Both the position numbers and the translations under genes were made by a program. DNA of 64,000 bases, from positions 12,809 to 76,808 of the forward strand of contig DHFT01000039.1 of NCBI GenBank assembly GCA_002402375.1, in the 5' to 3' direction. This stretch comes from Elusimicrobia bacterium UBA4817. GTDB taxonomy: Bacteria; Elusimicrobiota; UBA8919. Of the stretch, positions 1-53,857 are shown piece after piece; the first letter of the stretch is position 1, and every line of letters starts with the position of its first letter. Below the pieces are notes generated by a model. It saw only the letters and a program-made list of their open reading frames with translations, had not been told where the DNA came from and made no database searches.

Positions 1-58
1 TCCTCTTTATTATTATCGTAAAGTACTGATGCTTTTTTTACACGCTGAATAACCGCTT

Positions 59-490: not shown

Positions 491-576
491 TTTTTGAACG
501 CAGATTCCGCAAAAAATCGTTATTTGACTTTATCTGTGTCCTCTATCCGTGTTAATCTGTGGTTTCATTTGTAAAT

Positions 577-648
577 CGTCCCCGACAGGAATCGAACCTG
601 CATCAATGGCTTCGGAGGCCATCACTCTATCCGTTGAGCTACAGGGAC
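577..648 (-). tRNA. tRNA-Arg (anticodon CCG)
   Basis: 72-nt cloverleaf read on the minus strand: acceptor stem GTCCCTG/CGGGGAC (one G-U pair), D-arm AGCTCAACGGATAGAGT, anticodon stem ATGGC/GCCAT with loop CTCCGAA (anticodon CCG), T-arm GGTTCGATTCC, discriminator G, no encoded CCA. Confidence 0.8.
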
Positions 649-675
649 ATAATTACGTATTTTACTTATTTTTTT

Positions 676-4622: not shown

Positions 4623-4664
4623 AAATTACTTGGTGTCTGTTAAAATTATTAAAGATTAGAGAAG

Positions 4665-5039
4665 TTAATGTTGACTATTCACTTCAAAAATATTACCCAT
4701 CTTAAACATTGGCATAAACATAGATATAATTGTTACAAAGAATGTCAATCCTATTATGATAAATAGCGAAACCAATAATAATTTTGTGATTCTGATGTTT
4801 TTCCCTATAACTATATAAATATAAATTGCACTTATTGGCAATAAAATTACAAGCCACATTTTAGATAAAAAAAATATGCTTTTGGTGATTTGCGATAAAT
4901 CAACTCCTAAACTATCAAATATTTCTCTAAACGAAGGAACGACACCAATTAAAATATAAGAACAAACTATTATTGCCGCGAGTAAACCCAATTTAAGGTC
5001 AGTCAATTTAGAAATATTATTTTTAACAAATTTTATCAT
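4665..5039 (-). CDS. small integral membrane protein (3 predicted TM helices), hypothetical
   Basis: 124 aa ORF made of hydrophobic segments; no recognisable family. Confidence 0.4.
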   Translation of the reverse strand: MIKFVKNNISKLTDLKLGLLAAIIVCSYILIGVVPSFREIFDSLGVDLSQITKSIFFLSKMWLVILLPISAIYIYIVIGKNIRITKLLLVSLFIIIGLTFFVTIISMFMPMFKMGNIFEVNSQH

Positions 5040-5078
5040 TTAATTTCCTTATTGCTAAAGCATCAAATCAATGTCTAA

Positions 5079-5120
5079 AATGACGCATACCCGTGAATAC
5101 CATTGAGATTTTATGTTCGG
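5079..5120. repeat. imperfect direct-repeat copy of the purH 3' end (partner at 6351..6391)
   Basis: About 41 bp, 4 mismatches: 'atgacgcatacccgtgaataccattgagattttatgttcgg' versus 'atggcgcatgcctgtgaataccattgagattttatgctcg'. The 6351..6391 copy encodes the purH C-terminus (…MVFTGMRHLRH*). Confidence 0.8.
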
Positions 5121-5148
5121 TATATTTTTCGGAATTGACCGCAGTTAA

Positions 5149-6279
5149 TTATCCGATAATATCAAAATAATTATCCTTAGTTATAACGGTAAATTTAGAA
5201 TTTTTATATGTTTCAACAAAATCTTTCGGCGGTTTTACGCCTTTTGCTTTCCATTTGCATTCAAAACCCCAAAGACATCCAGCCCTTTCTTCAACAAAAT
5301 CAACCTCTTTCTGGTCGTAAGTCCTCCAGAAATATTTATTGCAATGAATATTTTTATAATTTAATTTTTTAATTCTTTCCGAAATACAATAATTCTCCCA
5401 TAATTTTCCTATGTCATCCCGCATAGTAATACTATTATAATTTGAAATAATAGCGTTGCGAACACCGTTGTCCCAAAAATAATATCGCGGTGTTTTTGTA
5501 TATTCCTTCCTTAAATTCCTGCTGAAACCGTATAATGAAAATAACACATAAGATTTTTCAAGTAATTCAAGATACCTCATCACCGTTTTTTTATTTGCAT
5601 TTAAGTTATTAGCGAGTTCAGAATATGAAATATCGTTACCGATTTGGAATGCTATAAGTCGTAATAAATTAAAAATGAATAAAGAGTTTTTGAGATTGTC
5701 CAATTGCAAAATATCTCTCAATAAATAACCGTCTCTTATTGATTCAAGCAGTTCTTTCTTTTCTTTTAAGGATTTTGCCGTCAATACCTGCGGATACATT
5801 CCATATATCAATCTGTCCTCTAAATTTTCCTTGTTTTTCAGAAAATCCTGATAATTGTTTAATTCTAATTGTGATATGGGATAAAAATAATAGAACTTAC
5901 TTCTCTCCACCAGAGGTTCTCCTATTTTGTTTTTTAAGTCAAATGAGGAAGAACCGGAAACAAAAACTGAAATTCCCGGGATATTGTCAACAATAAGTTT
6001 TAGATTGAGTCCGATGTTGGGTATTTTCTGGGCTTCGTCTATAAAAAGATATTTATAACCGGCTGTAAACTTTTCAAGAATGCTTAACATCTGACTTGAT
6101 AATATTTCTAACACATCTAAATTTTCACCATTTACCATTAGAACAGGTTTGTTTTTTAATTTCTCTTTCACCGAATTCATTAGCACGGTCTTACCGGTTC
6201 TTCTGGCACCGAAGAGTCCGATGACTTTGCCTGCCTTTAGAGACGATAGTATCTGATTTTCAATAAATCTGGGTATCAT
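5149..6279 (-). CDS. AAA+ ATPase with DUF4143-type C-terminal domain (COG1373-like)
   Basis: 376 aa; Walker A 'GARRTGKT'; N-terminal AAA domain followed by the extension typical of DUF4143 ATPases. Confidence 0.7.
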   Translation of the reverse strand: MIPRFIENQILSSLKAGKVIGLFGARRTGKTVLMNSVKEKLKNKPVLMVNGENLDVLEILSSQMLSILEKFTAGYKYLFIDEAQKIPNIGLNLKLIVDNIPGISVFVSGSSSFDLKNKIGEPLVERSKFYYFYPISQLELNNYQDFLKNKENLEDRLIYGMYPQVLTAKSLKEKKELLESIRDGYLLRDILQLDNLKNSLFIFNLLRLIAFQIGNDISYSELANNLNANKKTVMRYLELLEKSYVLFSLYGFSRNLRKEYTKTPRYYFWDNGVRNAIISNYNSITMRDDIGKLWENYCISERIKKLNYKNIHCNKYFWRTYDQKEVDFVEERAGCLWGFECKWKAKGVKPPKDFVETYKNSKFTVITKDNYFDIIG

Positions 6280-6339
6280 GGTGTCTGTATTTTAATAAAT
6301 ATATCTGGTTTTGTCAAGAGTTTTTTGTTTCCAAAATTT

Positions 6340-7851
6340 TTAATGACGGAGATGGCGCATGCCTGTGAATACCATTGAGATTTTATGCTCGTTGCAGACG
6401 GTTATTGATTCGTTATCTTTTACCGAGCCGCCGGGCTGAATAATTGCTTTTACGCCGATTTTTGCTGCTTCGTTGACGACATCTTTGAACGGGAAAAATG
6501 CGTCGGAGGATAAAACAAGCGGTAGACGGTAGACGGTAGACGGTAGACGGATTAAGTTCATTTTCATTTTTGCGATTTTTAGTGAGTCAATCCTTGACAT
6601 TTGGCCGCCGCCGATTCCTACCGTTCGGGTGCCTCTGGCAAGGACGATTGCATTTGATTTTACATATTTTGCGACGGTAAAAGCAAATTTTAACGATTCC
6701 AATTCTTCTTTTGCCGGTTTTGTCTTTGTAACAATTTTTAACTTGTCAAAAATTTTGCTGTCCTTTTCCTGAACAAGAAAGCCGTCGGAAATACTGCGGA
6801 ACTCAAGCGATTGAGCAAGTGAGCGATTAAGCGAGTGAGTTAAAACTCTTAAATTTTGTTTTTGCGAAAATATTTTCAGCGCATCTTTTGAATAATTCGG
6901 CGCAATAACACACTCGGTAAAAATTTTTATTACGTCTCTTGCGGTTCTGCCATCCACGATTTTATTAAACGCTACAATTCCGCCGAATGCCGAAACGGGG
7001 TCGCAGGCAAGAGCATTTTTGTAAGCATCAAAAATAGTTTTAGCGGTTGCAACTCCACAAGGATTATTATGCTTTACAATCACACAAGCAGGTTTTTCAA
7101 ATTCGCAAACCAGATTAAAAGCAGAATCCATATCAAGATAATTGTTATAAGAAAGTTCTTTCCCTTGCAGTTGTTTTACACTTCCGACTTCCGACTTCCC
7201 ACTTCCGATATGGTAAACTGCCGCTTTCTGATGAGGATTTTCACCGTACCGCAAGTCGGAAAATTTTTTAAGTCCAACTGTTATTTTTTCTGGAAACTGC
7301 TCGTCGGTAAAATAATTTGAAATAATAGAATCATAATAAGCGGTATGGCTGAATGCCTTTGCCGCAAGTTTTTTTCTGAATGAAAAATCTATCTTTGAAC
7401 TTTTAATATTATCTATGATGTTAGAATAATCTTTCGTGTCGCAGACCGCCAGAACATTCTCAAAATTTTTTGCGGCCGCGCGGAGCATCGCCACTCCGCC
7501 GATATCTATATTTTCAACTGAAGGTTTTTCTTCAAACGGATAAAGATTTATAACGACGATATCAATCGCGTTAATTTTGTGTTTTTTCAACTCGTCAATA
7601 TGTTGTTTTGTCTTTTTTGCCAGTATTCCCGCGTGGATTTTCGGATGCAGTGTCTTTACCCGCCCGTCAAGGATTTCCGGAAAGCCAGTAATTTTTTCAA
7701 CCGAAACGACGGAAATTCCCACTTTTTTAAGAAACGTTACTGTCCCGCCGGTTGATATAATTTTGACATCCAATTTTTTAAGTTCTTTTGCAAATTCAAC
7801 AATTCCGGTTTTGTCCGATACGCTGATTAATGCTGTTTTAATAGTTTTCAT
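6340..7851 (-). CDS. purH: bifunctional AICAR formyltransferase / IMP cyclohydrolase
   Basis: 503 aa; MGS-like N-terminal domain (KTALISVSDKTG…GGT) and C-terminus 'SDAFFPF…IIQPGGS…MVFTGMRHLRH' matching PurH. Confidence 0.95.
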   Translation of the reverse strand: MKTIKTALISVSDKTGIVEFAKELKKLDVKIISTGGTVTFLKKVGISVVSVEKITGFPEILDGRVKTLHPKIHAGILAKKTKQHIDELKKHKINAIDIVVINLYPFEEKPSVENIDIGGVAMLRAAAKNFENVLAVCDTKDYSNIIDNIKSSKIDFSFRKKLAAKAFSHTAYYDSIISNYFTDEQFPEKITVGLKKFSDLRYGENPHQKAAVYHIGSGKSEVGSVKQLQGKELSYNNYLDMDSAFNLVCEFEKPACVIVKHNNPCGVATAKTIFDAYKNALACDPVSAFGGIVAFNKIVDGRTARDVIKIFTECVIAPNYSKDALKIFSQKQNLRVLTHSLNRSLAQSLEFRSISDGFLVQEKDSKIFDKLKIVTKTKPAKEELESLKFAFTVAKYVKSNAIVLARGTRTVGIGGGQMSRIDSLKIAKMKMNLIRLPSTVYRLPLVLSSDAFFPFKDVVNEAAKIGVKAIIQPGGSVKDNESITVCNEHKISMVFTGMRHLRH

Positions 7852-8329
7852 CGGTGTCCTGTCCCGCGCCTTTTATAAATTTTGCTATGACACTTTCAAT
7901 CGTGTCGTAAGAAAATCCCCTGCCGGCAAGAAACTGAAAAATTTTACTCTTTGCTTTTAACGGTTCAAGTTTTTTATATCTCGCAAGTTTATTTTTTATT
8001 GTGTCAAAGGCCAGTTCCGTCTCGTCAATTTCCAGAGAGCTTAAAATTCCGGATGCCGTTTCGCGCGGTATTCCTTTTCTGTTTAATTCCCGCATAATAA
8101 AATTTTTGCTTTTATTGTGACGCAGGCGGTATTCCATCCATTCTTTCGCAAATTTTTCGTCGTCAATCAATTTTAATTTTTTCAATTTTTCTATTACGGT
8201 ATCAACAACGGTGCTATCATAATTTTTTCCGATTTTATCCCGTATCTCTTTTTCGGAATGGTTTCTCCTGGCAAAAAGCCAGAACGCATATTTTTGTGCC
8301 TTGTGATAATTCGTGGATTTTTCTTTCAT
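7838..8329 (-). CDS. recX: RecX family recombination regulator
   Basis: 163 aa, three-helix repeat architecture, 'YAFWLFARRNHSEKEIRDKI' RecX-like N-terminus. Confidence 0.7.
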   Translation of the reverse strand: MKEKSTNYHKAQKYAFWLFARRNHSEKEIRDKIGKNYDSTVVDTVIEKLKKLKLIDDEKFAKEWMEYRLRHNKSKNFIMRELNRKGIPRETASGILSSLEIDETELAFDTIKNKLARYKKLEPLKAKSKIFQFLAGRGFSYDTIESVIAKFIKGAGQDTDENY

Positions 8330-9360
8330 ATTTCAATGATACTATATTTTTTTTCTCCGAGTCCGAGTTTTACTGCGTAATCAAGTTGCACCGAGTAATC
8401 AATATCCGGAAATATGTGCTTGAAAAAATCGCTGCCGAATTTTTTGTTAACCAGTTTAAAAGATGCCGTATCAATCGCTACTGGGTCGCAAGATGCCAAA
8501 ATTCCTATATCGGGAATTTGCGGACTCTCTTTTGTCTCGTAGCAATCGCAGAATTTTGTTATGTAGTTCAGAAAATTTATGTAAATCGCTTTTTTATTTT
8601 TTAAGCACCCTGCGGCATATTCCGCCATTTTTTCCTGTAAGTTTTTCACGGATTCATCCCATGGAATTTTTATCGCATATTGCTCACAGGACAAAATACA
8701 TTCGCCGCACCCGATACAGGCAGTTTTATTTATTATAATTTTTTTATTCACAAGTTTCAAGGCATTTGACGGACACCACTTAATACAATTGCCGCATCCG
8801 ATACACTTTTCAGGTTTAATTTCAGGTTTTACGGAATTATGCATTTCGTATTTTCCGGCCCGTGCCCCGCAACCCATTCCGATATTTTTGATTGCCCCGC
8901 CGAACCCGGAAATCTCATGTCCCTTGAAGTGGGTTAAAAAAATAAATTTATCCGTATAATAAATATCCCGCGCGATTTTTACGGATTTAAAATGTTTTAG
9001 ATTTACATCAACATCTATGTAAGAATTTCCCCGCAGCCCGTCGGCAATTATTATCGGGCATCCGCAAATACCGAAACCGTGTTCAATCGCAATATTAAGA
9101 TGGTCAACGGCATTTGCCCGGCTTCCCCTGTAGATTGTATTTGCGTCGGTTAAAAACGGTTTTCCGCCGCGCGATTTTACAATTTCAACAATCGGTTTTA
9201 CATATTCGGGTTTGATGTAACCCTTGTTTCCTTTTTCTCCGAAATGAATTTTAATTGCTACGAAATCATTTTTAGAAACGAGCGAATTTATTCCCGATTT
9301 TTCCGCTATTTTTTTTACCGTTTCTGCCGAAAACGTCTTTGTGAAATATACATTACTCAT
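8326..9360 (-). CDS. DUF362-domain protein with two 4Fe-4S ferredoxin motifs
   Basis: 344 aa; 'CIGCGNCIKWCP' and 'CIGCGECILSCEQ' CxxCxxCxxxCP clusters embedded in a DUF362-like fold. Confidence 0.6.
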   Translation of the reverse strand: MSNVYFTKTFSAETVKKIAEKSGINSLVSKNDFVAIKIHFGEKGNKGYIKPEYVKPIVEIVKSRGGKPFLTDANTIYRGSRANAVDHLNIAIEHGFGICGCPIIIADGLRGNSYIDVDVNLKHFKSVKIARDIYYTDKFIFLTHFKGHEISGFGGAIKNIGMGCGARAGKYEMHNSVKPEIKPEKCIGCGNCIKWCPSNALKLVNKKIIINKTACIGCGECILSCEQYAIKIPWDESVKNLQEKMAEYAAGCLKNKKAIYINFLNYITKFCDCYETKESPQIPDIGILASCDPVAIDTASFKLVNKKFGSDFFKHIFPDIDYSVQLDYAVKLGLGEKKYSIIEI

Positions 9361-9769
9361 AAAATCCCGTCTTTTTGCGGTTTTCCTTTTTTAGTGATTG
9401 CAGATGTTTGTTTTTTAGAATTTTTTCCTTTGCCCGTTTGGACCGTTTTCTTTTTTGCCGTCTTATCTTTTCTATTCTCTGTTGTTCCTTGCTTTTTATC
9501 CCAAGCAGCATCCGTTCAATTTTATCCGTCAGTATGCGTCTTGCAATAAAACGGTTCAATAACTGCGACCGTTCCCGCTGGCATTTTATTTCAATTCCGG
9601 TCGGAGTATGTTTCAGATAAACGCAAGTTGACACTTTGTTAAGATTTTGTCCGCCCTTGCCGCTTGACCGCAAAAATTTTTCTTCAATATCTTTTTCGTA
9701 TATGCCCAGTTTAAGCATTTTCTCTTCAAGCGATTTTTGTTTTTGCGAATTTATTCCGAGGTTAATCAT
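9353..9769 (-). CDS. arfB: alternative ribosome-rescue factor ArfB (GGQ-motif peptidyl-tRNA hydrolase)
   Basis: 'SSGKGGQNLNKVST' GGQ motif plus a highly basic C-terminal tail. Start moved to the internal ATG (MINLGINSQ…) forming an ATGA overlap with the upstream stop at 9766. Confidence 0.7.
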   Translation of the reverse strand: MINLGINSQKQKSLEEKMLKLGIYEKDIEEKFLRSSGKGGQNLNKVSTCVYLKHTPTGIEIKCQRERSQLLNRFIARRILTDKIERMLLGIKSKEQQRIEKIRRQKRKRSKRAKEKILKNKHLQSLKKENRKKTGFYE

Positions 9770-10138
9770 AATTTTAATTTTCCGATAATGTCGTCGGCAA
9801 TTCTCTGCGGTTTTAAGTTTGAATTGACGCATACAAGCGTGGTTTTTCCGGTGACGAGCATTCGTTTTGTCTCTTTTTCTTCAATTCTGTATGAGAGTTC
9901 CAGACGGGTGCCGGCAGCAGATTCAAGTTGTGTTTGAATAATAATTGTTTCGCCGTATCTTGCGGGTGATTTATAATCTAATTCGGCGTGTGCAACAACA
10001 AACAGAATTCCCTGTTCGGCGAGTTGTTTAACGCTTATGTCTTTTTCCAAAAACCACTCGGTTCTTGCCCTCTCAAAATATGTTAGGTAATTGGCATAAT
10101 AAACTAGGCCGCCGCAATCGGTGTCCTGATAATAAATT

Positions 10139-10149
<11 letters not shown>
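9766..10149 (-). CDS. YbgC/4HBT-family hotdog acyl-CoA thioesterase
   Basis: 127 aa; 'YYQDTDCGGLVYYANYLTYFERARTEWF' hotdog-fold thioesterase signature. Confidence 0.7.
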
Positions 10150-12632
<2,483 letters not shown>

Positions 12633-12639
12633 TGTGCAT

Positions 12640-13050
12640 TTATTTGATTTTTCGTTTTGCTTTTATTTTATCCAGAATACCGTTAACAAATTTTCCGGAT
12701 TCATCCGTGGAAAAATCTTTTGCAAGTTCTATTGCTTCGTTTATTACTGCCTTCGGGGGTGTAGAAAGAGCATAGAGCAGTTCGTAAGAAGCAAGTCGCA
12801 AAATTGCCCTATCAACGGCGGCCATTCTATCAATATCCCAATTTTCCGCCGTCTGTTTTAGCAGTTCGTTTATTTCATCAAGATTTGCAATCGTTCCGTC
12901 AATAAGTTCCTGCGCGAATGCAACAATGTCCTTATCATAATTTTTTGTCTGCCAGAACGCTTTTTCTGCTTCTGCTTTGGTCAATTTACAGACATCCACA
13001 GCGTAGAGTATTTGCATTGCGCATTCTCGCGATATTCTTCTTGAACCCAT
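12640..13050 (-). CDS. nusB: transcription antitermination factor NusB
   Basis: 136 aa; '[18 protein letters not shown]' NusB family; conserved ribH-nusB adjacency. Confidence 0.85.
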
Positions 13051-13097
13051 TTTTTTGCTCCATCAATTCATTCCCCGACGATATAAGAGACCCTTCA

Positions 13098-13130
13098 CTT
13101 CGTTCAGGGTGACACTGTTGAGAAAGTTCA
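13098..13130. repeat. perfect 12-bp-stem palindrome 'tgacactgttga-gaaag-tcaacagtgtca' (REP-like, GTGACAC family)
   Basis: Seen directly between the ribH stop and nusB start; followed by TTTTATT on the plus strand. Its arms share 'gacactg' with the hairpins at 47165..47250. Confidence 0.6.
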
Positions 13131-13136
13131 ACAGTG

Positions 13137-13604
13137 TCATTTTATTACAGTATTCAGATTTGCCATCTCTATTGCCGTCATTGCTGCCTCGGCGCCTTTG
13201 TTGCCGGATTTTGTCCCTGCCCGTTCAATTGCCTGCTCAAGATTATCCGTCGTAATAACTCCGAAAACCGCCGGCACGCCGGTTTTAAGTCCGGTTGATG
13301 CAATCCCTTTTGTTACCTCCGCTGCGATATAATCAAAATGCGGCGTGTCGCCTTTTATGACCGCGCCCAGACAAATCACAGCGTCATATTTTTTTGACGA
13401 TGCGAGTTTGTTTGCCGCAAACGGAATTTCAAAAGAGCCCGGCACCCAAACGATGTCCAGATTTTTTTCGTCGGCATCGTGCCGTTTAAGCGCATCCAAA
13501 CATCCGTCTAAAAGTTTGGAAGTGATGAATTCGTTGAACCTTGAAATCACAATTCCAAATTTCAATCCCTTTGCCACTAGTTTCCCTTCAAAAACCTTTC
13601 CCAT
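13137..13604 (-). CDS. ribH: 6,7-dimethyl-8-ribityllumazine synthase
   Basis: 155 aa; '[14 protein letters not shown]…[15 protein letters not shown]' lumazine synthase signature. Confidence 0.9.
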
Positions 13605-13708
13605 AACACCCCCATTTAACGGCTAACGGCGTGAGAAAGTGAAAAAGAGAGAAAGTAAGAAAGTTAAAACCTTTTTACCTTTTCACGCCTTTTGCCTTTT
13701 CTATTCTT

Positions 13709-14911
13709 TTATAGCAAATGTCCGCATTTTTCCTTTTTAGTTTTCAGGTATCTTTCTGCAAATTTTGATTTAGGTTTTATTTTTATAGGGAGCCGGTTTA
13801 CAACTTTTAGTCCGTAGCCCTCAAGTCCGATAATCTTTTTCGGGTTGTTGGTTAAAAGTTTTATGGTTGAAAGCCCTAAATCTACAAGTATCTGCGCACC
13901 TATTCCGTAATCCCGTAAATCAGGTTTGAAACCCAGTTGTATATTTGCTTCCACGGTGTCATAACCCCTGTCTTGTAATTCATATGCTTTTATTTTATTC
14001 AGTAATCCGATACCTCTTCCCTCCTGATGCATATATAATAAAACGCCGGTTCCTTGTTTTTGGATGATCTGCATTGATTTTTCCAACTGTTCGCCGCAAT
14101 CGCACCGCAGCGAATGAAAAGCGTCGCCGGTTAAACAGGATGAATGCACTCTGACAATAACATTTTTTTTATTTTTGATATCTCCTTTTACCATCGCCAG
14201 ATGATTTTCTTTTTTTAATTTATCCTGATATAAGTGAAGTATGAAATTGCCGTATCTCGTAGGAAAGTTTGGAATCGTTACTATTTTTTCAACAAGTTTT
14301 TCCGTCTGCCGTCTGTATTCAATAATCTGTGCTATTGTAATTATTTTTAATTTATGTTTTTTTGAGAATTTTAGAAGTTGCGTCATTCTTGCCATAGTCC
14401 CGTCTTCGTTCATTATTTCGCAAATTACGCTTGACGGATAAAGCCCTGAAATTTTTGCCATATCCACGCCGGATTCCGTATGTCCCGCTCTGACCAGCAC
14501 TCCGCCTTCTTTATAACGCAGCGGAAAAATATGCCCCGGTTTTATTAAGTCGTCCGGTTTCGTTTTAGGATTAATAATTGTTTTAACCGTCTGCGCCCTG
14601 TCGTGTGCCGAAATGCCGGTGGTTATTCCTTTTTTTGAGTCAACCGAGACGGTGAATGCGGCTTCCTTTACTTCAAGTCCGCTTGTTACCATCGGATGAA
14701 GTTCCAACTCGTCAAGTCGTTTTCCTTCCATAGCAATGCATATTAAACCCCGTCCTTCCTTCGCCATAAAATTTATTTTTTCAGGAGTGATTTTTTCGGA
14801 AGCATAAACTATATCGCCTTCATTTTCCCTTGCCGGGTCGTCAACGATTATAACTGCTTTGCCTTTTTTGAAATCTTTTATCGCTTCTTTAATATCAGAA
14901 AATTCAATCAT
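13709..14911 (-). CDS. ribBA: bifunctional 3,4-dihydroxy-2-butanone-4-phosphate synthase / GTP cyclohydrolase II
   Basis: 400 aa; DHBP synthase N-terminal half (DDPARENEGD) and GTP cyclohydrolase II C-terminal half (Cys cluster 'CLTGDAFHSLRCDCG'). Confidence 0.95.
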   Translation of the reverse strand: MIEFSDIKEAIKDFKKGKAVIIVDDPARENEGDIVYASEKITPEKINFMAKEGRGLICIAMEGKRLDELELHPMVTSGLEVKEAAFTVSVDSKKGITTGISAHDRAQTVKTIINPKTKPDDLIKPGHIFPLRYKEGGVLVRAGHTESGVDMAKISGLYPSSVICEIMNEDGTMARMTQLLKFSKKHKLKIITIAQIIEYRRQTEKLVEKIVTIPNFPTRYGNFILHLYQDKLKKENHLAMVKGDIKNKKNVIVRVHSSCLTGDAFHSLRCDCGEQLEKSMQIIQKQGTGVLLYMHQEGRGIGLLNKIKAYELQDRGYDTVEANIQLGFKPDLRDYGIGAQILVDLGLSTIKLLTNNPKKIIGLEGYGLKVVNRLPIKIKPKSKFAERYLKTKKEKCGHLL

Positions 14912-15527
14912 AAAATCCCGCCTTTTTTAGAGTTTCAAGTGTTATTTTATTTTTTTCTTTTTGTTGCAAAACATATTTTGCAAGAATGTCGGTTTCCAAA
15001 TTAACGGTATCTCCGTTTTTTTTTTCTTTAAGTGTCGTGTTATTTAATGTATGAGGAATTATTGCCGTTGAAAATGAATTTGTTTTTTTTTCCGCTACCG
15101 TTAAACTGATTCCGTCAATAGCCACCGAACCCTTTTCTGCGATATATTTTGACAGATTTTCAGGTATTGAAAATTGCCAAATTTCCGAATTCCCCGATTT
15201 TTTTATTTTTAATATTTTTCCGGTTCCGTCAATGTGTCCCGTAACGAAATGTCCGCCTAATTTACCGTCGGATTTTAATGCTCTTTCAAGATTAATAATG
15301 CTTCCAATTTTTAATTCTCCCAAATTTGTTTTTTTTAAGGTTTCTTCGGAAATGTCAGCCGTGAACTCGTGAACTCGTGAACTCGCTAAATCGCTAACTG
15401 TCAAACAAATACCGCTAACACAAATACTGTCGCCAATGTTTATATCATCAAGTTTTGTCTCGACGGTAATTTGTGTTTTATTTATTTTTTTTACAGTTCC
15501 TAAATCTTCAATTATTCCAGTGAACAT
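14904..15527 (-). CDS. ribE: riboflavin synthase alpha subunit
   Basis: 'MFTGIIEDLGTV' N-terminus and the internal duplicated lumazine-binding repeat. Start moved to the internal ATG. Confidence 0.9.
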   Translation of the reverse strand: MFTGIIEDLGTVKKINKTQITVETKLDDINIGDSICVSGICLTVSDLASSRVHEFTADISEETLKKTNLGELKIGSIINLERALKSDGKLGGHFVTGHIDGTGKILKIKKSGNSEIWQFSIPENLSKYIAEKGSVAIDGISLTVAEKKTNSFSTAIIPHTLNNTTLKEKKNGDTVNLETDILAKYVLQQKEKNKITLETLKKAGFYD

Positions 15528-15531
15528 AGTT

Positions 15532-16545
15532 TTACACAAAGAGCGGGTTTGAAAAAATCCAGGGTTTGAAGCCAAATTTTTTCAGATAACATTCGCATCT
15601 GTATACGCCGTTTCCTTCGGTTTTTACTACTAATGTATCAGAAAAACTTTCTGCGAACAAGTTTCCGTTTTTAATGATTTTTATTTTTGCCGCCCTTGGT
15701 ATTTTAACGGTTATTTTATCATTTTCCCTGTAAAATTGAAAGCCCCTTGCATTTGAAAAATAATCGTTTGAGATAAAAGATTTTCCGTTTTTTAATGCGT
15801 TGTGAATCTTTTCAATATCAGAATCATTTTTTGAAAACGGCTCATCTATCGTTATATGAGTTCGTATAGTTCTAAATGCAAAGTCAAACGGGAAAATCTT
15901 TAAGTTAATGCCCAAATACTTCCTGGTGCTTTCATGGTTGTCAATTTCCCCTATCCCGTATTTTTTATTCGCTTCGCTCACCCCCGATTGAAATCGGGGG
16001 CTACAAGTTATGTCATCCCATCTTCTGAGTGTTTCTTTTTTGGGACCTTTAAGAAAATGTGCCGGGAATAGATAACTCAAAAGTGCCGTCGGATAATTTT
16101 TCAATGTCTTCTGCCAGTCGGTCTGCAAATCCCATATACAAAAGCCGGTGTAATTTTTAACGTTCCAGTCATTCCATCGGTATGATTTTATATCAAACTT
16201 TTTGTTGCCCTCGTGGTCGGGATGTGCGATAAAACCGTACCCGCCCTGACGGTTCACTTCGTCAATATATTTTTGCGGATTATTTTCCTGTTTATCAACA
16301 ACAACTGCATTTTTTATGTCAAAAGCGAGATAATGATTATATCTGGGAGAAATTTCTTCCCCGACAATAACAAGGGTGTTTTTATGCCAGCCCTCGTATT
16401 TTTTTGCTTCAATTGAAAAATGGTCTGTTACGACGATGAAATCAAGTCCGCATCTGTTAGCCGATTCAATAATTTCCTCCGGTTTCCTGTGTCCGTCAAA
16501 CGAATAAAAGGAATGAATATGAATTGCCCCGCAGTAATCAAACAT
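15532..16545 (-). CDS. PHP-domain metal-dependent phosphoesterase, embedded in the rib operon
   Basis: 337 aa; 'AIHIHSFYSFDGH…FIVVTDH' PHP His motifs; overlaps ribD by 8 bp and sits 5 bp upstream of ribE. Confidence 0.7.
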   Translation of the reverse strand: MFDYCGAIHIHSFYSFDGHRKPEEIIESANRCGLDFIVVTDHFSIEAKKYEGWHKNTLVIVGEEISPRYNHYLAFDIKNAVVVDKQENNPQKYIDEVNRQGGYGFIAHPDHEGNKKFDIKSYRWNDWNVKNYTGFCIWDLQTDWQKTLKNYPTALLSYLFPAHFLKGPKKETLRRWDDITCSPRFQSGVSEANKKYGIGEIDNHESTRKYLGINLKIFPFDFAFRTIRTHITIDEPFSKNDSDIEKIHNALKNGKSFISNDYFSNARGFQFYRENDKITVKIPRAAKIKIIKNGNLFAESFSDTLVVKTEGNGVYRCECYLKKFGFKPWIFSNPLFV

Positions 16546-17608
16546 TTAAATATCCCTCAAACAAAAAATCTTCTTCTATTTTTTCTACAGATATATTTTT
16601 AACGTCCGCGGCATTTTTTACGTATTCCGTACTGTTAATAATTTTAGGACAGATAAAAAACATAATTTTATCAACTAATTTTTCTTTAAGAAATGATTTG
16701 GCAACCGTTTCTCCGCCTTCAACAATCAGCGACGAAATACTCATTTTGCCGAGTTTAACCAGCAATTTTTTAATATCCAGAAAATTGTTTTTTAATGGGA
16801 GTTCAATTATCCCTATACCCATTTTTTTAAGTTTTTCTTTTTTAACTCTGTTTGAATTTATTGATGTTGCAATTATCGTTTTTGACTTACCGTTTAGTAC
16901 ATTTGTACTAAATGGAATTTTTAATCCGGTATCAAGAATTACTCTGACAGGATTTTTTCCTTTTCCGTGTGATGTCAGTTTCGGGTTGTCTTTTAATACA
17001 GTATTTATTCCAACCAGTATAGCATCGGTTCGGCTTCGTAATTGATGAACGGTTTCTCTGGATTTTTCAGAACTGAGCCATTTTGAATCTCCGCTCTCCG
17101 TTTTTGTTTTACCGTCTAAAGAGTATGCCATTTTAAGAATTACAAAGGGCGTTTTTGTTTTGATGTATTTTATGTATGTCTCGTTTAATTTTTTTGCTTC
17201 TTTTTCCATCACACTCACTTTACACTTTACACCTTTCACTTTCAACTGTCTTATCCCTTTCCCGCCAACCGCCGGGTTCGGGTCTTTTGTTGCGATAACA
17301 ACTTTTTTTATGCCGCTATTTATTATCTGCGGTACACAAGGCGGAGTTTTTTTATTGTAATGACAGCATGGCTCCAAGTTAACATACATCGTCGCATCTT
17401 TCGGGTTTTTACATTTTTTTAATGCCTCAACTTCCGCATGTGGCCCGCCAAAATATTTATGATAACCTGTTGAAAGAATTTTTCCGTTTTTTACGATTAC
17501 ACAACCGACCATAGGATTCGGACTGACTTTACCTTGTCCTTTTTTAGCAAGTTTTATTACCAATTGCATAAATTTTCTGTCTTCGTCTGTGTAATCTGTT
17601 TTTTTCAT
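16538..17608 (-). CDS. ribD: bifunctional diaminohydroxyphosphoribosylaminopyrimidine deaminase / 5-amino-6-(5-phosphoribosylamino)uracil reductase
   Basis: 356 aa; CMP/dCMP-type deaminase 'HAEVEAL…PCCHY…PPC' N-terminus and RibD reductase C-terminal domain. Confidence 0.9.
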   Translation of the reverse strand: MKKTDYTDEDRKFMQLVIKLAKKGQGKVSPNPMVGCVIVKNGKILSTGYHKYFGGPHAEVEALKKCKNPKDATMYVNLEPCCHYNKKTPPCVPQIINSGIKKVVIATKDPNPAVGGKGIRQLKVKGVKCKVSVMEKEAKKLNETYIKYIKTKTPFVILKMAYSLDGKTKTESGDSKWLSSEKSRETVHQLRSRTDAILVGINTVLKDNPKLTSHGKGKNPVRVILDTGLKIPFSTNVLNGKSKTIIATSINSNRVKKEKLKKMGIGIIELPLKNNFLDIKKLLVKLGKMSISSLIVEGGETVAKSFLKEKLVDKIMFFICPKIINSTEYVKNAADVKNISVEKIEEDFLFEGYLNV

Positions 17609-17632
17609 CTGTGTAATTTGTGTTCTATAAAT

Positions 17633-17668
17633 AAAAAATCCCCAATTTGTCTTCGGGGTTTATTGGGC
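17633..17668 (-). terminator. intrinsic terminator (FMN riboswitch expression platform)
   Basis: Minus-strand 'CCCAATAAACCCCGAAGACAAATTGGGGATTTTTTATTT': G/C stem followed by a U-tract, immediately 3' of the FMN aptamer. Confidence 0.65.
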
Positions 17669-17701
17669 GAATAAATTCACCTTTACAAAAAACATATTAT
17701 A

Positions 17702-17843
17702 CTCTTCTATCATCCGGACTTTACCGTCGGTATCTGAATTTCACAGATTCGGTCCCGAACATTTTTAATAAAAAATGTGAGAGATTAGCGGACTTTTACC
17801 GCCGGTCGGGAATTCCTGTTTAGGTCACCCCACCCCGAAGAGT
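17702..17843 (-). promoter_or_regulatory. FMN riboswitch (RFN element) leading the rib operon
   Basis: The minus strand reads 'CTCTTCGGGGTGGGGTGACCTAAACAGGAATTCCCGACCGGCGGTAAAAGTCCGC…GGGACCGAATCTGTGAAATTCAGATACCGACGGTAAAGTCCGGATGATAGAAGAG', matching the RFN consensus blocks GGGG(C/T)GGGTGAAATTCCC, GACCGGCGGTA.AAGTCCGC and CCGACGGTAAAGTCCGGATG. Confidence 0.85.
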
Positions 17844-17849
17844 AATGTA

Positions 17850-17877
17850 ATTATACAAAAAATAAAATAAATGTCAA
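17850..17877 (-). promoter_or_regulatory. sigma70-type promoter (TTGACA-N16-TATAAT) for the FMN riboswitch / rib operon
   Basis: The minus strand reads TTGACA, 16 nt, TATAAT, ending about 7 nt before the aptamer 5' end. Confidence 0.5.
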
Positions 17878-18797
17878 TTAAATTTTTTGGAAAAAGAAAT
17901 ATAAGTGGTTCTGTCAAACACGCTGTTGACGGCACTTGCAAAATCAAATCCGAAATCCTTCCATAGTATTCCGATCCCGAAATTTGTTCCGTTAATTTTT
18001 CCCGCTTTGTTGAGATATCCGCCTCTTAAAAAAAGCCAGTTGAGGTAAGAGTACTCGCCGCTGAATCTCGGACGGAATATATCATCTTTTTCCCGTAAAA
18101 AATCAAAAGATACGTCAAAATTATTTTCGCGGTTATTTAACAGGGTATATGACAGTCCGCATCGGACGGAACTTGGCAGGTCGTCTTTTACAGGGTCGTT
18201 GGAATAAATGACCTTTGTTCCGAAATTTTCGCCGGAAAATCCGAGTTTAAGATTTCTTACAAAATCAACTTTATATAAAATTCCGAAATCAATTGCTTGG
18301 GCGTTCCCGATAGTTTTTCCAAAAATGGGATTTTTTTCATATCTGTAAATGTATTTTAGATTTATTCCGAAGGAGAGATTGTGAAAAAGATTTCTTCCAT
18401 AGGCGACAGAAAACGCCCAGTCGTTCCATATCAGTTCGCCCATATCGTAGTTAAATTCGTCGGTAACGGGTATCGGGGTAATTCTGTAACTTAATATGCC
18501 GATAGCCATGGCGCCATGTTTTTTTAGCGACAACAGTCCGCCGAGATACTGCATAACGGCATCGCCTTGAGGCGCCGGCGAATGGGAAAAAGTTATTTCG
18601 CTTTCCGAATCCGCAATGCCTGCCGGATTATGAAAAAATGATGATGCGTCTAATTTTGTTGCGGCGGATGTTTCAGCTAAAGAAATTATTCTTGCGCCTC
18701 CTGCCAGTTTCAGAAAATCGGCGCCGGTGTGAGTGGAAGCGTAGAGGCAATTAAAAATTAAAAATGGAAAATTAAAAATTAAAATGATTGTTTTCAT
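17874..18797 (-). CDS. FadL/PorV/PorQ-like outer-membrane beta-barrel protein (T9SS-associated?)
   Basis: 307 aa, signal peptide, N-terminal 'GADFLKLAGGARIISLAETSAATKLDASSFFHNPAGIA' FadL/PorV-like motif, alternating beta-strand pattern; tandem paralogue of the next gene. Confidence 0.5.
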   Translation of the reverse strand: MKTIILIFNFPFLIFNCLYASTHTGADFLKLAGGARIISLAETSAATKLDASSFFHNPAGIADSESEITFSHSPAPQGDAVMQYLGGLLSLKKHGAMAIGILSYRITPIPVTDEFNYDMGELIWNDWAFSVAYGRNLFHNLSFGINLKYIYRYEKNPIFGKTIGNAQAIDFGILYKVDFVRNLKLGFSGENFGTKVIYSNDPVKDDLPSSVRCGLSYTLLNNRENNFDVSFDFLREKDDIFRPRFSGEYSYLNWLFLRGGYLNKAGKINGTNFGIGILWKDFGFDFASAVNSVFDRTTYISFSKKFN

Positions 18798-19741
18798 TAA
18801 AATTTGCAGTTCAGCGTAAATCTGTTAACGTCGGTCAATTTTTCATGTGAGGTGAATGAGTAGTCAATGGAGATTATTTTTGCCGAAAATCCCGCACCGA
18901 AAGAATAGTTCTGCAATGTTGTATATCCCGCCCGCAGTTTGAAATTTTTGACGGCGTTAAGTTCAACTCCCAAATTACCGTTCAAGATATTTTCTCTCTG
19001 TCTAACCCCGTCAACGGACAAAAGCAGTTTATCAAAATTCCTGCTTATTCCCAGTCGCAATTCCGACGGTAAAACGTCCTTTTCGCCGCCGAATGAAATT
19101 TTACTGCCTACATTTCTTATACAAAAACCGAAATCAAAAGGCAGGTTGTAGCCGGAATATAATAATCCCAAATCCGCCGCAATTGCCGTTGCCGATTCCC
19201 CTGCCAGTTTCTCGTTCAGATATTTTACGGTTATTCCTGCATCCAAAGGATAGATTTTTCTTGCGTAGGAAATACCGGCGACCGCGTCGCTGTTTAAGAA
19301 TTCGTCCCGTCCTATTCCGCGTTCATCTCTTTCAACATCTTTTGATGACAGATATTTTAATGTTATGCCGATGTTTCCTTTAATTTTTTGGATGTATGTT
19401 GAGAACTTCATATCCTCAAGATTGACATCTTCAAAATATTCCGAATGCGAAAAAGAAAAATTATAGTCGGGCAGGTTTGAAATTGCTGCGGGATTAAAAT
19501 CCAACGCTCCAAGATTTTCCGATAAGGATGTGACCGCTTCCGCCATGGCGGATGTTTTTGCCTCGGGGCTGATTCGTAGCAACAGTCCGGCAGATGTTCC
19601 GGTGTCAGAGGCAGAGAACAAAGTTAAAGGTATAAGGTTAAAGGTTAAAATAAAGCAGATGAAAAATGAAAAATGAAAAGTTGAAATTTTGGCAGTATTT
19701 AGACCTTTAACTTTTAATTTTAACCTTCTTTTTATTTTCAT
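18797..19741 (-). CDS. FadL/PorV/PorQ-like outer-membrane beta-barrel protein (paralogue)
   Basis: 314 aa, signal peptide, 'GTSAGLLLRISPEAKTSAMAEAVTSLSENLGALDFNPAAIS' motif, C-terminal Phe; start overlaps the downstream gene. Confidence 0.5.
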   Translation of the reverse strand: MKIKRRLKLKVKGLNTAKISTFHFSFFICFILTFNLIPLTLFSASDTGTSAGLLLRISPEAKTSAMAEAVTSLSENLGALDFNPAAISNLPDYNFSFSHSEYFEDVNLEDMKFSTYIQKIKGNIGITLKYLSSKDVERDERGIGRDEFLNSDAVAGISYARKIYPLDAGITVKYLNEKLAGESATAIAADLGLLYSGYNLPFDFGFCIRNVGSKISFGGEKDVLPSELRLGISRNFDKLLLSVDGVRQRENILNGNLGVELNAVKNFKLRAGYTTLQNYSFGAGFSAKIISIDYSFTSHEKLTDVNRFTLNCKF

Positions 19742-21279
19742 TTTTTTATGACTGTAATCTTTCCTTTACAGGAATCAGTTTGGGTTTTTGCTGCATAAAA
19801 ATATATTCCCGATGCAACAGTAGAACCATTTTCATTTTTGCCGTCCCATATAACGGAAGTTCCGCTGCCGTCAATTTCTCTGACGAGGTTTCCTTCCAAA
19901 TTATAAATTTTTATGTTTATCACAGAGTTATCCGGGAAATTTTTTATTGTCAGATTTCCGGTTGAAGGGTTATAAGGGTTCGGTGCGTTGACGACATAAT
20001 TTAATGACTGCGGTCCGTAGGTCACTTTTGAATAATAATCAGCCAAAAACTCATCCCAGTTTGTCGCCTGACAGAAACTTAAATTTTCATAATTACCGTC
20101 GGGATTATTCCAAATTTCCCAATCATCTTTTGTTTTCGGAAAGTTTATAGAAAGTCCGTGTGAATTTTTATGGGTGCTTCCAACTCTGTTTGCGAGCACA
20201 CAATCATTAATGGAGTCCATTACATTGCTCGCAGAGTTTCTCAAAGACGCCGAGTCCAAATCGGGGTTTTGTTCAATAATATAGGCTAAATCATAAATGT
20301 CAATTCCGCCGTATTGAACATTGCTTGATTCACCGTAATAATCAACCGCATCTCTTGTAAGATATAAAGGAATAGTTTTTTTTGTTGAGATAAGTTGATA
20401 TGCAAAATTATCTATTGCCGCCGCCAACTCGCCGATTTTTGACAAATCCACTGCCGATGCGGTTCTTTTATCAAGCACTGAAGAAAAATAAGAAACTGCC
20501 TCGTCGGAATACGCCTTATCCCAGATGTCAACAATTTTTTGCGAGAATGTTTTCGGGTCATAATTCGGATTTGAAACAAGTTCCGTCAAAATTCCGTCAT
20601 AAGGCCAGCCGTATTCGTTTTCTTCGGAGGCAACCATATAGTTCGCAGAATCTTTTATCTGATATGCGATTTCAATTTGTGCCATAAGGCATGCGTCCAA
20701 TCCGATGATGTCAATATTTTTTCCGAGATATGTTTTTATCGTAGAAAGTGCGTTTCCGAGTTCCGCCGTTGTCAGATAATCATTGTCGTCGGTAGTATCG
20801 TCCCATGCTATTCCTTTTTTTAGTTTTGGTGATTTGGGCCACCATCCGCCTCCGTGATTCCACACGACAAGACAATAATTTTCCGCCGGATAATTCGCTA
20901 TTGTCCATGTTGAAAATACGACAAGCGTTGCGTGGTCGCCTGTGTTCAATTCATTTGTTGTTGCAGACGGAAGTAAATTTGCAATAGTTATTGTAGGCGT
21001 GTTTATTGTGAATGTGTCGGTATCGTTTTGTATTTTGTAAAGGTAAGTATTACCGTCGCCGTTTTTATCCGCAAGAACAATTATGTTTACATCAGTTGAA
21101 TTTGCGGCAACTTCCATTTTGTTTATGTCCCGTTTCAACTGGTCGCCTTTCAGTGATGTATCAAGAGAATTATCACCTGCGATGTAGACGATAAATGTCC
21201 ATTTTGCCGCGGATAAAAATGTGCTAAAAAATATGGACAGGCATAATACCTGTCCATATTTAAGAATTTTTTTTGTCAT
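19738..21279 (-). CDS. clostripain-like (C11) cysteine peptidase with T9SS C-terminal sorting domain
   Basis: Signal peptide; 'WTFIVYIAGDNSLD', His-Gly dyad 'VVWNHGGGW', catalytic Cys 'IGLDACLMAQIE'; C-terminal approx 80 aa 'KIYNLEGNLV…SGIYFYAAKT…KITVIKK' matching the Por-secretion CTD pattern. Confidence 0.75.
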   Translation of the reverse strand: MTKKILKYGQVLCLSIFFSTFLSAAKWTFIVYIAGDNSLDTSLKGDQLKRDINKMEVAANSTDVNIIVLADKNGDGNTYLYKIQNDTDTFTINTPTITIANLLPSATTNELNTGDHATLVVFSTWTIANYPAENYCLVVWNHGGGWWPKSPKLKKGIAWDDTTDDNDYLTTAELGNALSTIKTYLGKNIDIIGLDACLMAQIEIAYQIKDSANYMVASEENEYGWPYDGILTELVSNPNYDPKTFSQKIVDIWDKAYSDEAVSYFSSVLDKRTASAVDLSKIGELAAAIDNFAYQLISTKKTIPLYLTRDAVDYYGESSNVQYGGIDIYDLAYIIEQNPDLDSASLRNSASNVMDSINDCVLANRVGSTHKNSHGLSINFPKTKDDWEIWNNPDGNYENLSFCQATNWDEFLADYYSKVTYGPQSLNYVVNAPNPYNPSTGNLTIKNFPDNSVINIKIYNLEGNLVREIDGSGTSVIWDGKNENGSTVASGIYFYAAKTQTDSCKGKITVIKK

Positions 21280-40340: not shown

Positions 40341-40363
40341 CCCCCGATAGAATCATTCGGGGG
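40341..40363 (-). terminator. probable terminator hairpin downstream of the GT2 gene
   Basis: 'cccccga-tagaatcat-tcggggg', 7-bp G/C stem followed on the minus strand by a U-rich stretch. Confidence 0.4.
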
Positions 40364-53850: not shown

Positions 53851-53857
53851 ATTTTTA

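Follow-up and report, generated by a model that had tools for sequence, protein, structure and literature searches.

Heptamer and octamer tandem arrays in riboflavin biosynthesis genes and other housekeeping genes of groundwater Elusimicrobiota

Introduction

Dispersed families of tandem heptamers, such as the STRR sequences (for short tandemly repeated repetitive) of cyanobacteria and the TAACTGA and GGGNATC repeats, have been known for decades. STRR sequences are reportedly few-copy tandem heptamers that belong to dispersed unit families and can occupy a tolerant spot of an essential gene. In heterocyst-forming cyanobacteria, Vioque is said to have described them in 1997 within helix P12 of the gene for RNase P RNA; closely related strains reportedly carry unrelated STRR sequences there, and the insert is said to be dispensable. 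Other selfish or neutral short DNA is likewise said to be tolerated in frame within conserved proteins, namely, the Rickettsia palindromic elements (RPEs) described by Ogata in 2000 and the cyanobacterial small dispersed repeats (SDRs) described by Elhai in 2008. Here, we analyze tandem arrays of 8-nt and 7-nt units that lie within ribE and ribD, two riboflavin biosynthesis genes, in a 64,000-nt stretch of DNA from Elusimicrobia bacterium UBA4817 (hereafter the window; all coordinates are those of the whole stretch).

Among the long simple sequence repeats (LSSRs) of many bacteria, heptamers form the commonest class, for which polymerase slippage over a contact of ~7 nt has been proposed, and units that are not a multiple of three have been noted as rare in coding regions (Mrazek 2007, as cited in PMC4679880). 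The GGGNATC heptamers of Xanthomonas and Nostoc show a preference for four units, which has been attributed to G-quadruplex formation (Rehm et al. 2015, PMC4692102). TAACTGA repeats are found in marine Beggiatoaceae, Cyanobacteria, and Bacteroidetes in 2 to 6 copies, with “no mechanism evident” (MacGregor 2015, PMC4679880). Our literature search found no report of such repeats in Elusimicrobia. The arrays that we describe belong to a known kind of repeat, here met in a different phylum and within housekeeping genes that code for proteins, and nothing indicates a function for them. Their aligned series of hot spots is unusually informative on how such repeats arise and spread.

Results

Direct reading of the sequence and a Tandem Repeats Finder (TRF) scan locate one array in each of the two genes (Table 1). 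In ribE, CGTGAACT is repeated 3.25 times on the forward strand with 100% exact matches (15360-15385), followed in the same register by two diverged 8-mers, CGCTAAAT and then CGCTAACT. All genes of the window lie on the minus strand according to the open reading frame (ORF) listing, and on this coding strand the ribE array reads GTTAGCGA TTTAGCGA GTTCACGA x3, encoding the peptide ...VSDLASSRVHEFTADIS.... The ribD array is imperfect on the forward strand (CACTTTA x3.9, 85% matches, TRF score 40), and residues 123-133 of RibD read ...KVKGVKCKVSV.... Full-length matches of RibE to solved riboflavin synthases and of RibD to solved RibD proteins fix the two folds. The NCBI entry for the window RibE is a riboflavin synthase from a metagenome-assembled genome (MAG) of “Elusimicrobia bacterium.” An earlier, sequence-only reading of this DNA had noticed the ribE octamers (three exact and two diverged units) and a fourfold ribD heptamer; both repeats are real, and both peptides were quoted correctly. 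It had also counted at least seven intragenic arrays in the first 20 kb and treated them as one phenomenon that preserves the reading frame. This agrees with our findings: alaS, ligA, ribE, and ribD hold one array each and purH three, and all of them are in frame.

We compared the ribE DNA of the window with that of 15 clade relatives (16 genomes in total; L and P numbers are labels of related loci and proteins). The segment between the conserved motifs G-[VI]-C-L-T and D-I-S-E-E-T is hypervariable and repeat-derived in all 16. A 7- or 8-mer array occupies it in 14 genomes, while L166 holds a contracted two-unit remnant and L164 a decayed, expanded array (Table 1). The same pattern is repeated at the protein level among 37 database RibE proteins, and in homologues at a greater distance this segment is short and unremarkable. 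Relative to array-free homologues, RibE is 3 to 4 amino acids (aa) longer. The arrays mark lineage-wide orthologous hot spots with rapid turnover of units, which goes beyond what the sequence-only reading had described.

Turnover at the ribE site is fast relative to the divergence of its surroundings. Six relatives (L002, L165, L166, L167, L169, and L170) share 92 to 97% protein identity outside the hot spot, and their flanking DNA differs by 3 to 6% from that of L169 where compared. Within this group, the site holds an 8-mer array, one of two unrelated 7-mer arrays, or a contracted remnant; array type does not track relatedness. The ribE DNA of the window and L163 is 73.8% identical, and the longest exact stretch that they share is the 26-nt array itself. 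In L167, ~15 nt to the left of the array carries the single-nucleotide polymorphisms of L001 and the right side keeps the tail of the 8-mer allele, a pattern suggestive of short-patch replacement. The ribE site is an old hot spot, whose array would be recycled continually. One subgroup of relatives has a further ribE hot spot at residues ~107-125, with AATTYCNN-type 8-mer arrays (L168, 382-418; L082, 454-487; L163, 10318-10344; L003, ribE nt 324-343), where IKKSGNSEIWQFS is swapped for ISLFHNSRIVKFS-like sequence; the window has no array there.

The AlphaFold2 (AF2) model of RibE (predicted local distance difference test score, pLDDT, 79; 80 to 85 locally) has a strand at residues 40-49, a turn at 50-52, and a strand at 53-58, forming a beta-hairpin. 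In this model, the array encodes the distal half, or tip, of the hairpin in the N-terminal barrel. Each alignment to four solved riboflavin synthases has gaps at the hairpin, the window protein being 3 aa longer than 9ryj. Length differences also accompany other arrays: LigA gains 3 aa at residues 171-181 relative to Escherichia coli, and PurH gains 4 aa at residues 434-444 relative to 4ehi and 1 to 2 aa at residues 215-224. The surface-loop location that had been proposed for the repeats, with structural models as its check, holds for ribE, where the array lies at a beta-hairpin that varies in length among homologues. It does not hold for ribD, which has no insertion and whose array lies in a folded helix-turn-strand segment.

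The ribD array differs from that of ribE in its history. None of the seven clade relatives examined has an array at this position. There is also no indel at the array relative to those seven relatives, four PDB homologues, and 32 database homologues, which rules out a simple loop insertion. All relatives share a seed, TGTAAAGT, that encodes C-K-V, and in the window the bases neighboring this seed have been converted into further copies of the unit. This recoding turns NKNNVTCKVGI-like sequence into VKGVKCKVSV and includes two nearly invariant positions (G132S and L134M). In the AF2 model of RibD (pLDDT 92), residues 123-133 cover the last part of helix 117-124, strand 128-131, and the turns on either side of that strand. 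The array thus sits in a folded segment of fixed length within the deaminase domain, and in no loop. Judged from these alignments, it is young, specific to the window lineage, and created by substitutions only. Because no indel is present, the seed is conserved, and nearly invariant residues have been overwritten, the ribD array fits a mutational process and not a selected feature.

The purH and alaS sites are also orthologous hot spots and behave like those of ribE and ligA. At ligA, 8 of 10 genomes have an array, and the span from SIPL to LEVRG is 22 aa in seven genomes. The units there are ACTTCCG x4 in the window, ACTTCCC x4 in L001, TCTACCC x4 in L002 and L168, TCTACAC x3 plus TCTACCC in L165, and a decayed mixture in L003 and L163. 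Several modes of change can be read from these series. Concerted change without change in length is seen at ribE, where GTTCACGA x3 in the window corresponds to TTTCACGA x3 in L002. The purH-3 units CCGTCTA, CCACTTC, and CCATCTT differ by 1 to 2 substitutions per unit, repeated in every unit, and L165 has an 8-mer at this site. Homogenization is partial in the L165 ligA array and in the window purH-2 array (CGGAAGT GGGAAGT CGGAAGT CGGAAGT versus GGGAAGT in L003). It follows contraction at ribE, where L166 has two units and the 96%-identical L167 has 4.4 perfect copies of a variant unit.

Whole-unit length differences between related genomes, of 21, 48, and 7 nt, are confirmed. Three-unit steps, or multiples of them, separate the window purH-2 array from those of L165 and L002 (+21 nt) and the ribE array of L166 from that of L003 (-21 nt), and expand the ribE site of L164 (+48 nt). 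The 7-nt difference was found in L171 (GCA_003486845.1, DNFW01000087.1), a further public assembly from the population of the window, which is 99.87% identical to window positions 1-7043 with a sole gap of one purH-3 heptamer. The L171 array (~494-517, corresponding to the purH-3 array of the window) has 3.4 units instead of 4.4, which breaks the frame and truncates PurH (“hypothetical protein, partial,” HAX61593.1). The missing unit reflects real slippage or, alternatively, a miscount by the assembler. In a search for strain polymorphism, the 90% protein clusters of the window RibE and RibD had no second member, and exact-protein look-ups and clusters together gave a variant only at purH-3. 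The one-unit purH-3 variant and the breaking of contigs at arrays are the only, indirect hints of slippage in living cells.

Arrays are as much a feature of spacers as of coding sequence, and in both they usually have ~4 copies (26 to 35 nt). The 104-nt ribH-ribBA spacer of the window is almost wholly filled by its two period-8 arrays. Relatives likewise hold 7-, 8-, 14-, or 16-mer arrays in this spacer; thus, spacers are hot spots too. A frameshift in alaS of L004 (~15990-16010) was considered as an out-of-frame array and rejected: it lies at an A9 run (A7 in the window), is unrelated to the heptamers, and probably stems from an error in sequencing or assembly, or else from a true frameshift at the homopolymer.

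Units recur between sites. In the window, ligA (ACTTCCG) and purH-2 (CGGAAGT) use exactly the same unit in opposite orientations, and the alaS unit is one base off. In L004, the AAGATGG unit of purH-2 returns inverted at purH-3; in L168, TCTACCC forms perfect arrays at both ribE and ligA, in direct orientation; and the L172 ribE unit TCGTCCA is the ligA unit of L005. ACTTCCC is found at ligA (L001 and L003), at purH-3 (L002), and, inverted, at purH-2 (L003). Six of 171 cross-site pairs share the same unit class (0.39 expected) and 21 are within one mismatch (5.2 expected). The null model drew stop-free heptamers from the same genes, with one entry per distinct unit per site, and none of its 5000 draws reached the observed sharing. 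Arrays at different sites are thus not of independent origin. Many unit types coexist, and the recurrence of unit families was viewed in 10 to 64 kb per genome only.

Some arrays are associated with larger inserts. L005 carries one 24-nt insert, CCTGCCTCGCCGTCGTCAGGCGGG, at two ribE sites (6682-6705 and 7026-7049), flanked by CTCACTG/CTGCTCA heptamers. The second site is array-free in every other genome, and the insert arrived there accompanied by its flanking heptamers. A related 24-nt insert lies inside the ligA array of L004 (6350-6373); all three copies are GC-rich, nested in frame among heptamers, and of the form CCTGCC-N10-CAGGCGGG, and the insert resembles a tiny dispersed element. No copy of this form is found in the window, and other 24-nt inserts occur in L003, L164, and L002.

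The PHP-domain gene between ribD and ribE (15532-16545, minus strand) contains a 30-nt in-frame insert (15976-16005; CSPRFQSGVS) with a GC-rich palindrome, CCCCCGATTGAAATCGGGGG. The insert is common to L001 and L003 and missing from five other relatives, of which L002 and L165 have a separate 21-nt insert elsewhere in the gene instead. One contig of the Logan assemblies stops within the palindrome, and a similar hairpin, CCCCCGATAGAATCATTCGGGGG, is found at window 40341-40363. Inverted copies of units are found near two arrays: the ligA array is adjoined by an inverted copy of its own unit (GACTTCC...GGAAGTC, 12019-12041), part of the conserved LEVRG codons, and purH-2 has an inverted 9-nt copy, TTCCGACTT, 53 nt upstream in conserved SDL codons. 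These copies could be due to chance or hint at hairpin-templated seeding. Hairpin templating from nearby inverted copies was dropped as unproven, since the copies do not covary with the units in relatives.

The arrays exceed chance expectation. Among exact runs with at least 12 matches at periods 4 to 12, the window has six (five of period 7 and one of period 8), versus 0.26 expected from dinucleotide shuffles and 0.18 from triplet shuffles. At a TRF score of at least 40, it has nine arrays of period 7 (0.017 expected) and two of period 8 (0.03 expected), so that the imperfect ribD array, with a score of 40, is also beyond chance. Overall, period-7 and period-8 arrays are ~500-fold more common in the window than in shuffles. 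Periods 6, 9, and 12 show no excess, including the two (9 and 12) normally expected in coding sequence. Chance or base composition as the source of the arrays is ruled out by the dinucleotide, Markov, and triplet shuffles. By TRF and the census of exact runs against shuffles, the window thus contains head-to-tail units of 5 to 11 nt in runs longer than chance, the property that defines LSSRs.

Placed by its LigA relatives, the window belongs to a clade of groundwater Elusimicrobiota MAGs, with 74 to 90% LigA identity to L001-L005 and no more than 62% to relatives beyond these. All clade members carry such 7/8-mer arrays. The density of exact 7/8-mer arrays per 10 kb is 0.94 for the window and 2.05 for 14 clade relatives, versus 0.07 for another 75 ligA loci and 0.35 for another 78 ribE loci; sister lineages such as L006 and L007 are poor in arrays. 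Among the TRF arrays (score of at least 36) of the window and six relatives, period 7 is the most frequent (30 arrays), followed by period 8 (11), period 16 (9), and period 14 (8), with only a handful at periods 6, 9, and 12. Contigs from the Joint Genome Institute (JGI) metagenomes, searched for further close relatives, gave only two relevant loci, one of them a duplicate of L002.

Similar arrays also exist outside the clade. L022 (8825-8850 and 9007-9029), a distant Elusimicrobiota MAG (53% LigA identity), has an intergenic (CGGAAGT)x3.7, the purH-2 unit of the window and, inverted, its ligA unit. It lies directly after a stop codon and ahead of a terminator-like hairpin. Among the 78 other ribE loci, a few GC-rich contigs are also heptamer-rich: L109, L128, and L147 (unrelated metagenome contigs of 57 to 61% GC with distant RibE homologues) each have two to four exact heptamer arrays of 2.7 to 4.7 copies in 3 to 11 kb, and the CGCGGAA unit is common to L109 and L147. 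Heptamer arrays of ~four units are thus also present in further uncultured lineages.

Over 6523-15995 and 12862-15838, which take in five arrays, the window is matched at 100% identity by two Logan assemblies of separate sequencing runs; thus, the arrays are not an artifact of one assembly. Together with the orthologous arrays in more than 15 genomes, this rules out assembly artifact. Logan and other contigs tend to start or end within arrays, and one Logan contig stops inside the purH-3 array. Catalytic motifs are present in the array-bearing genes, whose matches to solved structures are full-length. The sequence-only reading had held that repeats at catalytic-core positions would suggest mis-assembly or a pseudogene instead. 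Neither mis-assembly nor a pseudogene is borne out: the genes are intact, catalytic motifs are present, and the same arrays are seen in independent assemblies.

Arrays with G/C-containing units all lie within window positions 1-20000, and only a few AT-rich arrays are found at 20001-64000 (38196-38227 and 44585-44626). This clustering would fit local spread between neighboring arrays. Two adjacent genes for PorV-like outer-membrane proteins have arrays that code for their hydrophobic N-terminal signal-peptide regions, and PorV-like variants with at least 90% identity (P0257 and P0258) differ within array-encoded residues. The window also contains two cobalamin riboswitches on the minus strand (47286-47470 and 53731-53901, the second barely above the Rfam threshold) and one tRNA gene (577-648).

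Table 1. Arrays and associated features of the window, and arrays at the ribE site of related genomes.
Feature	Position	Strand	Description
Flavin mononucleotide (FMN) riboswitch	17698-17846	-	Heads operon ribD-PHP-ribE-ribBA-ribH-nusB-ligA
ribD (bifunctional deaminase/reductase)	16538-17608	-	Intact ORF, 356 aa
ribD period-7 array	17216-17242	-	Imperfect; codons 123-131; coding strand GAAAGTG AAAGGTG TAAAGTG TAAAGTG
ribE (riboflavin synthase)	14904-15527	-	Intact ORF, 207 aa
ribE period-8 array	15360-15399	-	Five 8-mers in one register (direct reading, TRF)
ribE hypervariable hot spot	15357-15398	-	Codons 44-57 (VSDLASSRVHEFTA), between conserved G-I-C-L-T and D-I-S-E-E-T motifs
alaS array	3092-3123	-	Coding strand (AGTCCGA)x4.6; residues 500-511
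purH array 3 (purH-3)	6520-6550	-	(CCGTCTA)x4.4
purH period-8/16 array	6806-6839	-	Residues 338-349; no length change versus relatives
purH array 2 (purH-2)	7180-7208	-	Coding strand (CGGAAGT)x4.1
ligA array	12032-12061	-	Coding strand (ACTTCCG)x4.3; residues 171-181; orthologous hot spot in relatives
ribH-ribBA intercistronic spacer	13631-13700	-	Two period-8 arrays; forward strand GTGAGAAA x4.2 and ACCTTTTT x3.9
PorV-like outer-membrane protein gene, signal-peptide region	18749-18784	-	Period-7 array (TTTTAAT)x5
Second, adjacent PorV-like gene, N-terminal region	19623-19679	-	Two period-7 arrays
L001 and L003 ribE			TTACTCG-type x4-5
L002 ribE			GTTAACAA TTTAACAA TTTCACGA x3; every unit departs from that of the window in the same manner
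L004 ribE			(CGTCAAC TGTCAAC)x2
L005 ribE			CTGCTCA units broken by a 24-nt GC-rich insert
L082 ribE			AAATGCC x4.7
L163 ribE			GAGTTCAC x4.5
L164 ribE			Expanded, decayed 8-mer array, +48 nt (6 x 8)
L166 ribE			Two units; exactly 21 nt below L003 (2 versus 5 units)
L167 ribE			TACTCGC x4.4, perfect
L168 ribE			TCTACCC x5
L169 ribE			TTTCACGA x4
L170 ribE			(AACTCTA AACTCTC)x2.3
L172 ribE			TCGTCCA x4, then 8-mers

Discussion

The ribE and ribD repeats are probably nonadaptive short tandem repeats of the STRR kind, which would originate by slippage and template switching and be filtered for reading frame by selection. They would form a lineage-specific class of DNA-level repeats, with units of 7 or 8 nt and, we infer, without any function in themselves. 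A DNA-level mutational process, and not a selected feature, is indicated because the units are not multiples of three, arrays are also found in spacers, and the encoded peptides are unrelated among close relatives. It is also indicated because conserved residues are degraded in ribD and because some relatives have contracted or lost the array and yet have intact genes.

The chemistry that we infer is as follows. Mispairing of the nascent strand would create arrays and homogenize them, through in-register slippage inside an array, transient misalignment that copies a neighboring unit without change in length, and occasional template switching to another nearby array. Purifying selection would then retain only in-frame outcomes, that is, length-neutral conversions or the gain or loss of three units (21 or 24 nt), at places where the protein tolerates them or no protein is encoded: tips of beta-hairpins, loops, signal peptides, and intercistronic spacers. 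Arrays would pass through contraction to one or two units followed by re-expansion, so that all units would change together and close relatives would carry unrelated units. The ribD array is a young one, created by substitutions alone around the conserved seed TGTAAAGT.

Several observations weigh against this reading. The recurrence of units across sites, far above chance (6 versus 0.39), goes beyond simple local slippage, as when both ribE and ligA of L168 hold perfect (TCTACCC)n or L172 ribE shares TCGTCCA with L005 ligA. The 26-nt array is identical in the window and L163 despite 73.8% identity of ribE DNA. Unrelated arrays are found at a flank divergence of 3 to 6%, with the period even switching between 7 and 8. 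Given the sharing of units, the mismatch with phylogeny, and the L005 insert, ectopic template switching, inter-lineage recombination, or real dispersal is therefore needed. Moreover, the preference for ~four units also holds in spacers, so that frame selection alone does not set the size of an array, and the size preference appears intrinsic to the process. The choice of 7 and 8 nt, and of this clade, is left unaccounted for, and the one-unit purH-3 variant of L171 could be an assembler error.

Real dispersal would make the arrays tiny mobile elements or passengers of such elements: a dedicated system would copy arrays of ~30 nt, sometimes together with the 24-nt GC-rich palindrome, into preferred permissive sites within and between related genomes, and slippage would modify them later. 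We consider this a possible but rather unlikely explanation. It draws on the sharing of unit classes between sites well above chance and on the presence of one unit at two sites in the window (ligA and purH-2, inverted), in L004 (purH-2 and purH-3, inverted), and in L168 (ribE and ligA, direct). The 24-nt insert of L005, which sits at two ribE sites with flanking heptamers and has a relative in L004 ligA, points the same way, as do the (CGGAAGT)x3.7 array of distant L022, the clustering of arrays in the first 20 kb, and the publication of dispersed heptamer families without a mechanism (PMC4679880). Array type is discordant with the phylogeny of the flanks, and L167 resembles a short-patch replacement, but recombination among co-occurring relatives could mimic such incongruence. 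Against it, a single genome holds many different units, the arrays show neither constant termini nor target-site duplications, and the window genes scanned include no gene for a transposase, reverse transcriptase, or HUH nuclease. Insertion also played no part in the origin of the ribD and purH 16-mer arrays, and most differences between species at a site are 1 to 2 substitutions per unit, which fits descent in place. A tentative extension of the idea is that the arrays might be “nomadic microsatellites,” that is, self-propagating, dispersed heptamer or octamer arrays of ~30 nt that would jump or be copied between permissive sites (from ribE or purH to ligA, with either orientation) and from one related genome to another, at times together with the 24-nt palindrome. 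Their ~four units would be intrinsic, and the same process would lie behind STRR and other heptamer families. If so, conserved coding hot spots would give an aligned, dated series of events for working out the mechanism.

Retention of the arrays for a function (phase-variable switching, a peptide-level role, or DNA or mRNA sites for a protein that reads heptamers) is improbable. Units that are not a multiple of three are a hallmark of contingency loci, and here units of 7 and 8 nt lie inside ORFs, with a frame-breaking variant in unit number at purH-3. However, ribE, ribD, purH, ligA, and alaS are single-copy housekeeping genes whose switching off would be harmful, and not the surface, host-interaction, or restriction-modification genes that host contingency loci. 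Hot spots do persist across the clade, some arrays lie in outer-membrane protein genes, the arrays of the window and L163 are identical despite 26% DNA divergence, and cold-shock proteins can bind heptamer repeats (PMC4679880). Against a function, the units, and hence the peptides, are unrelated between close relatives; L166 and P0018 lack the array or have it contracted and have intact genes; both strands carry arrays, as do spacers; across five arrays, two independent assemblies of separate runs do not differ from the window; and the ribD array degrades conserved residues. That the arrays reflect chance, a composition effect, or an assembly artifact has a negligible probability in our view. 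De Bruijn assemblers can miscount units, one assembly is indeed a unit short, and contig ends tend to fall at arrays, but the excess over shuffles is ~500-fold, more than 15 genomes, from various studies and assembled by various programs, have arrays at the same codons, every window array is in frame, and Logan contigs are 100% identical through five arrays. Slippage and template switching under frame selection thus remain our favored explanation.

Because the conserved host genes align across relatives, single events can be read from them: birth by substitution, expansion and contraction by three units, homogenization, change of period, replacement, and copying between genes. The arrays also show that units that are not a multiple of three can persist in essential genes. 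They have practical consequences, since they break short-read assemblies and can yield spurious or real frameshifts (as in purH of GCA_003486845.1), and the hypervariable protein segments that they create could pass for the result of diversifying selection.

The surveyed LSSRs of 5- to 11-nt units (Mrazek 2007, as cited in PMC4679880 and PMC4692102) resemble the arrays described here in their 7-nt unit, in the overrepresentation of heptamers, and in slippage as the proposed origin. As cited there, however, units that are not a multiple of three lie mostly outside genes, in large and often GC-rich genomes, whereas here they lie inside housekeeping genes in DNA of 37% GC and probably a small genome. 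Unlike that survey, the orthologous series described here also displays turnover. The GGGNATC repeats (PMC4692102) share with our arrays the dispersed heptamers and the preference for ~four units, but they are G-rich and underrepresented in coding regions. The units in our arrays are not G-rich; thus, quadruplexes cannot explain their size preference, and a ~four-unit preference does not need G-quadruplexes. The TAACTGA repeats are similar in forming heptamer sets at many loci with a patchy distribution that suggests transfer. They differ in having a single unit sequence, in lying mostly in intergenic DNA just upstream of start codons, and in their proposed translational role.

RPEs and SDRs are fixed, usually palindromic elements, and the ribE and ribD arrays are neither. 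The net insertion relative to orthologues, which is also characteristic of such elements, is 3 to 4 aa in ribE and zero in ribD. Only the 24-nt inserts of L004 and L005 and the 30-nt insert of the PHP-domain gene fit this kind. STRR sequences, in contrast, are tandem heptamer units, as are our arrays, among which period 7 dominates with 30 TRF arrays. Both kinds also sit in a few copies where an essential gene tolerates them, with unrelated units at one place in close relatives and a gene product that appears to do without them. The hosts differ: heterocyst-forming cyanobacteria for STRR, Elusimicrobiota MAGs for the window and its relatives. Here, the host genes are also protein-coding, so that the reading frame adds a quantization in steps of three units; 8-mers occur beside 7-mers; and many unit types are found in the 10 to 64 kb viewed per genome, rather than a few families. 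By analogy, the arrays in ribE and ribD would work like STRR sequences, while being no taxonomic member of the STRR family.

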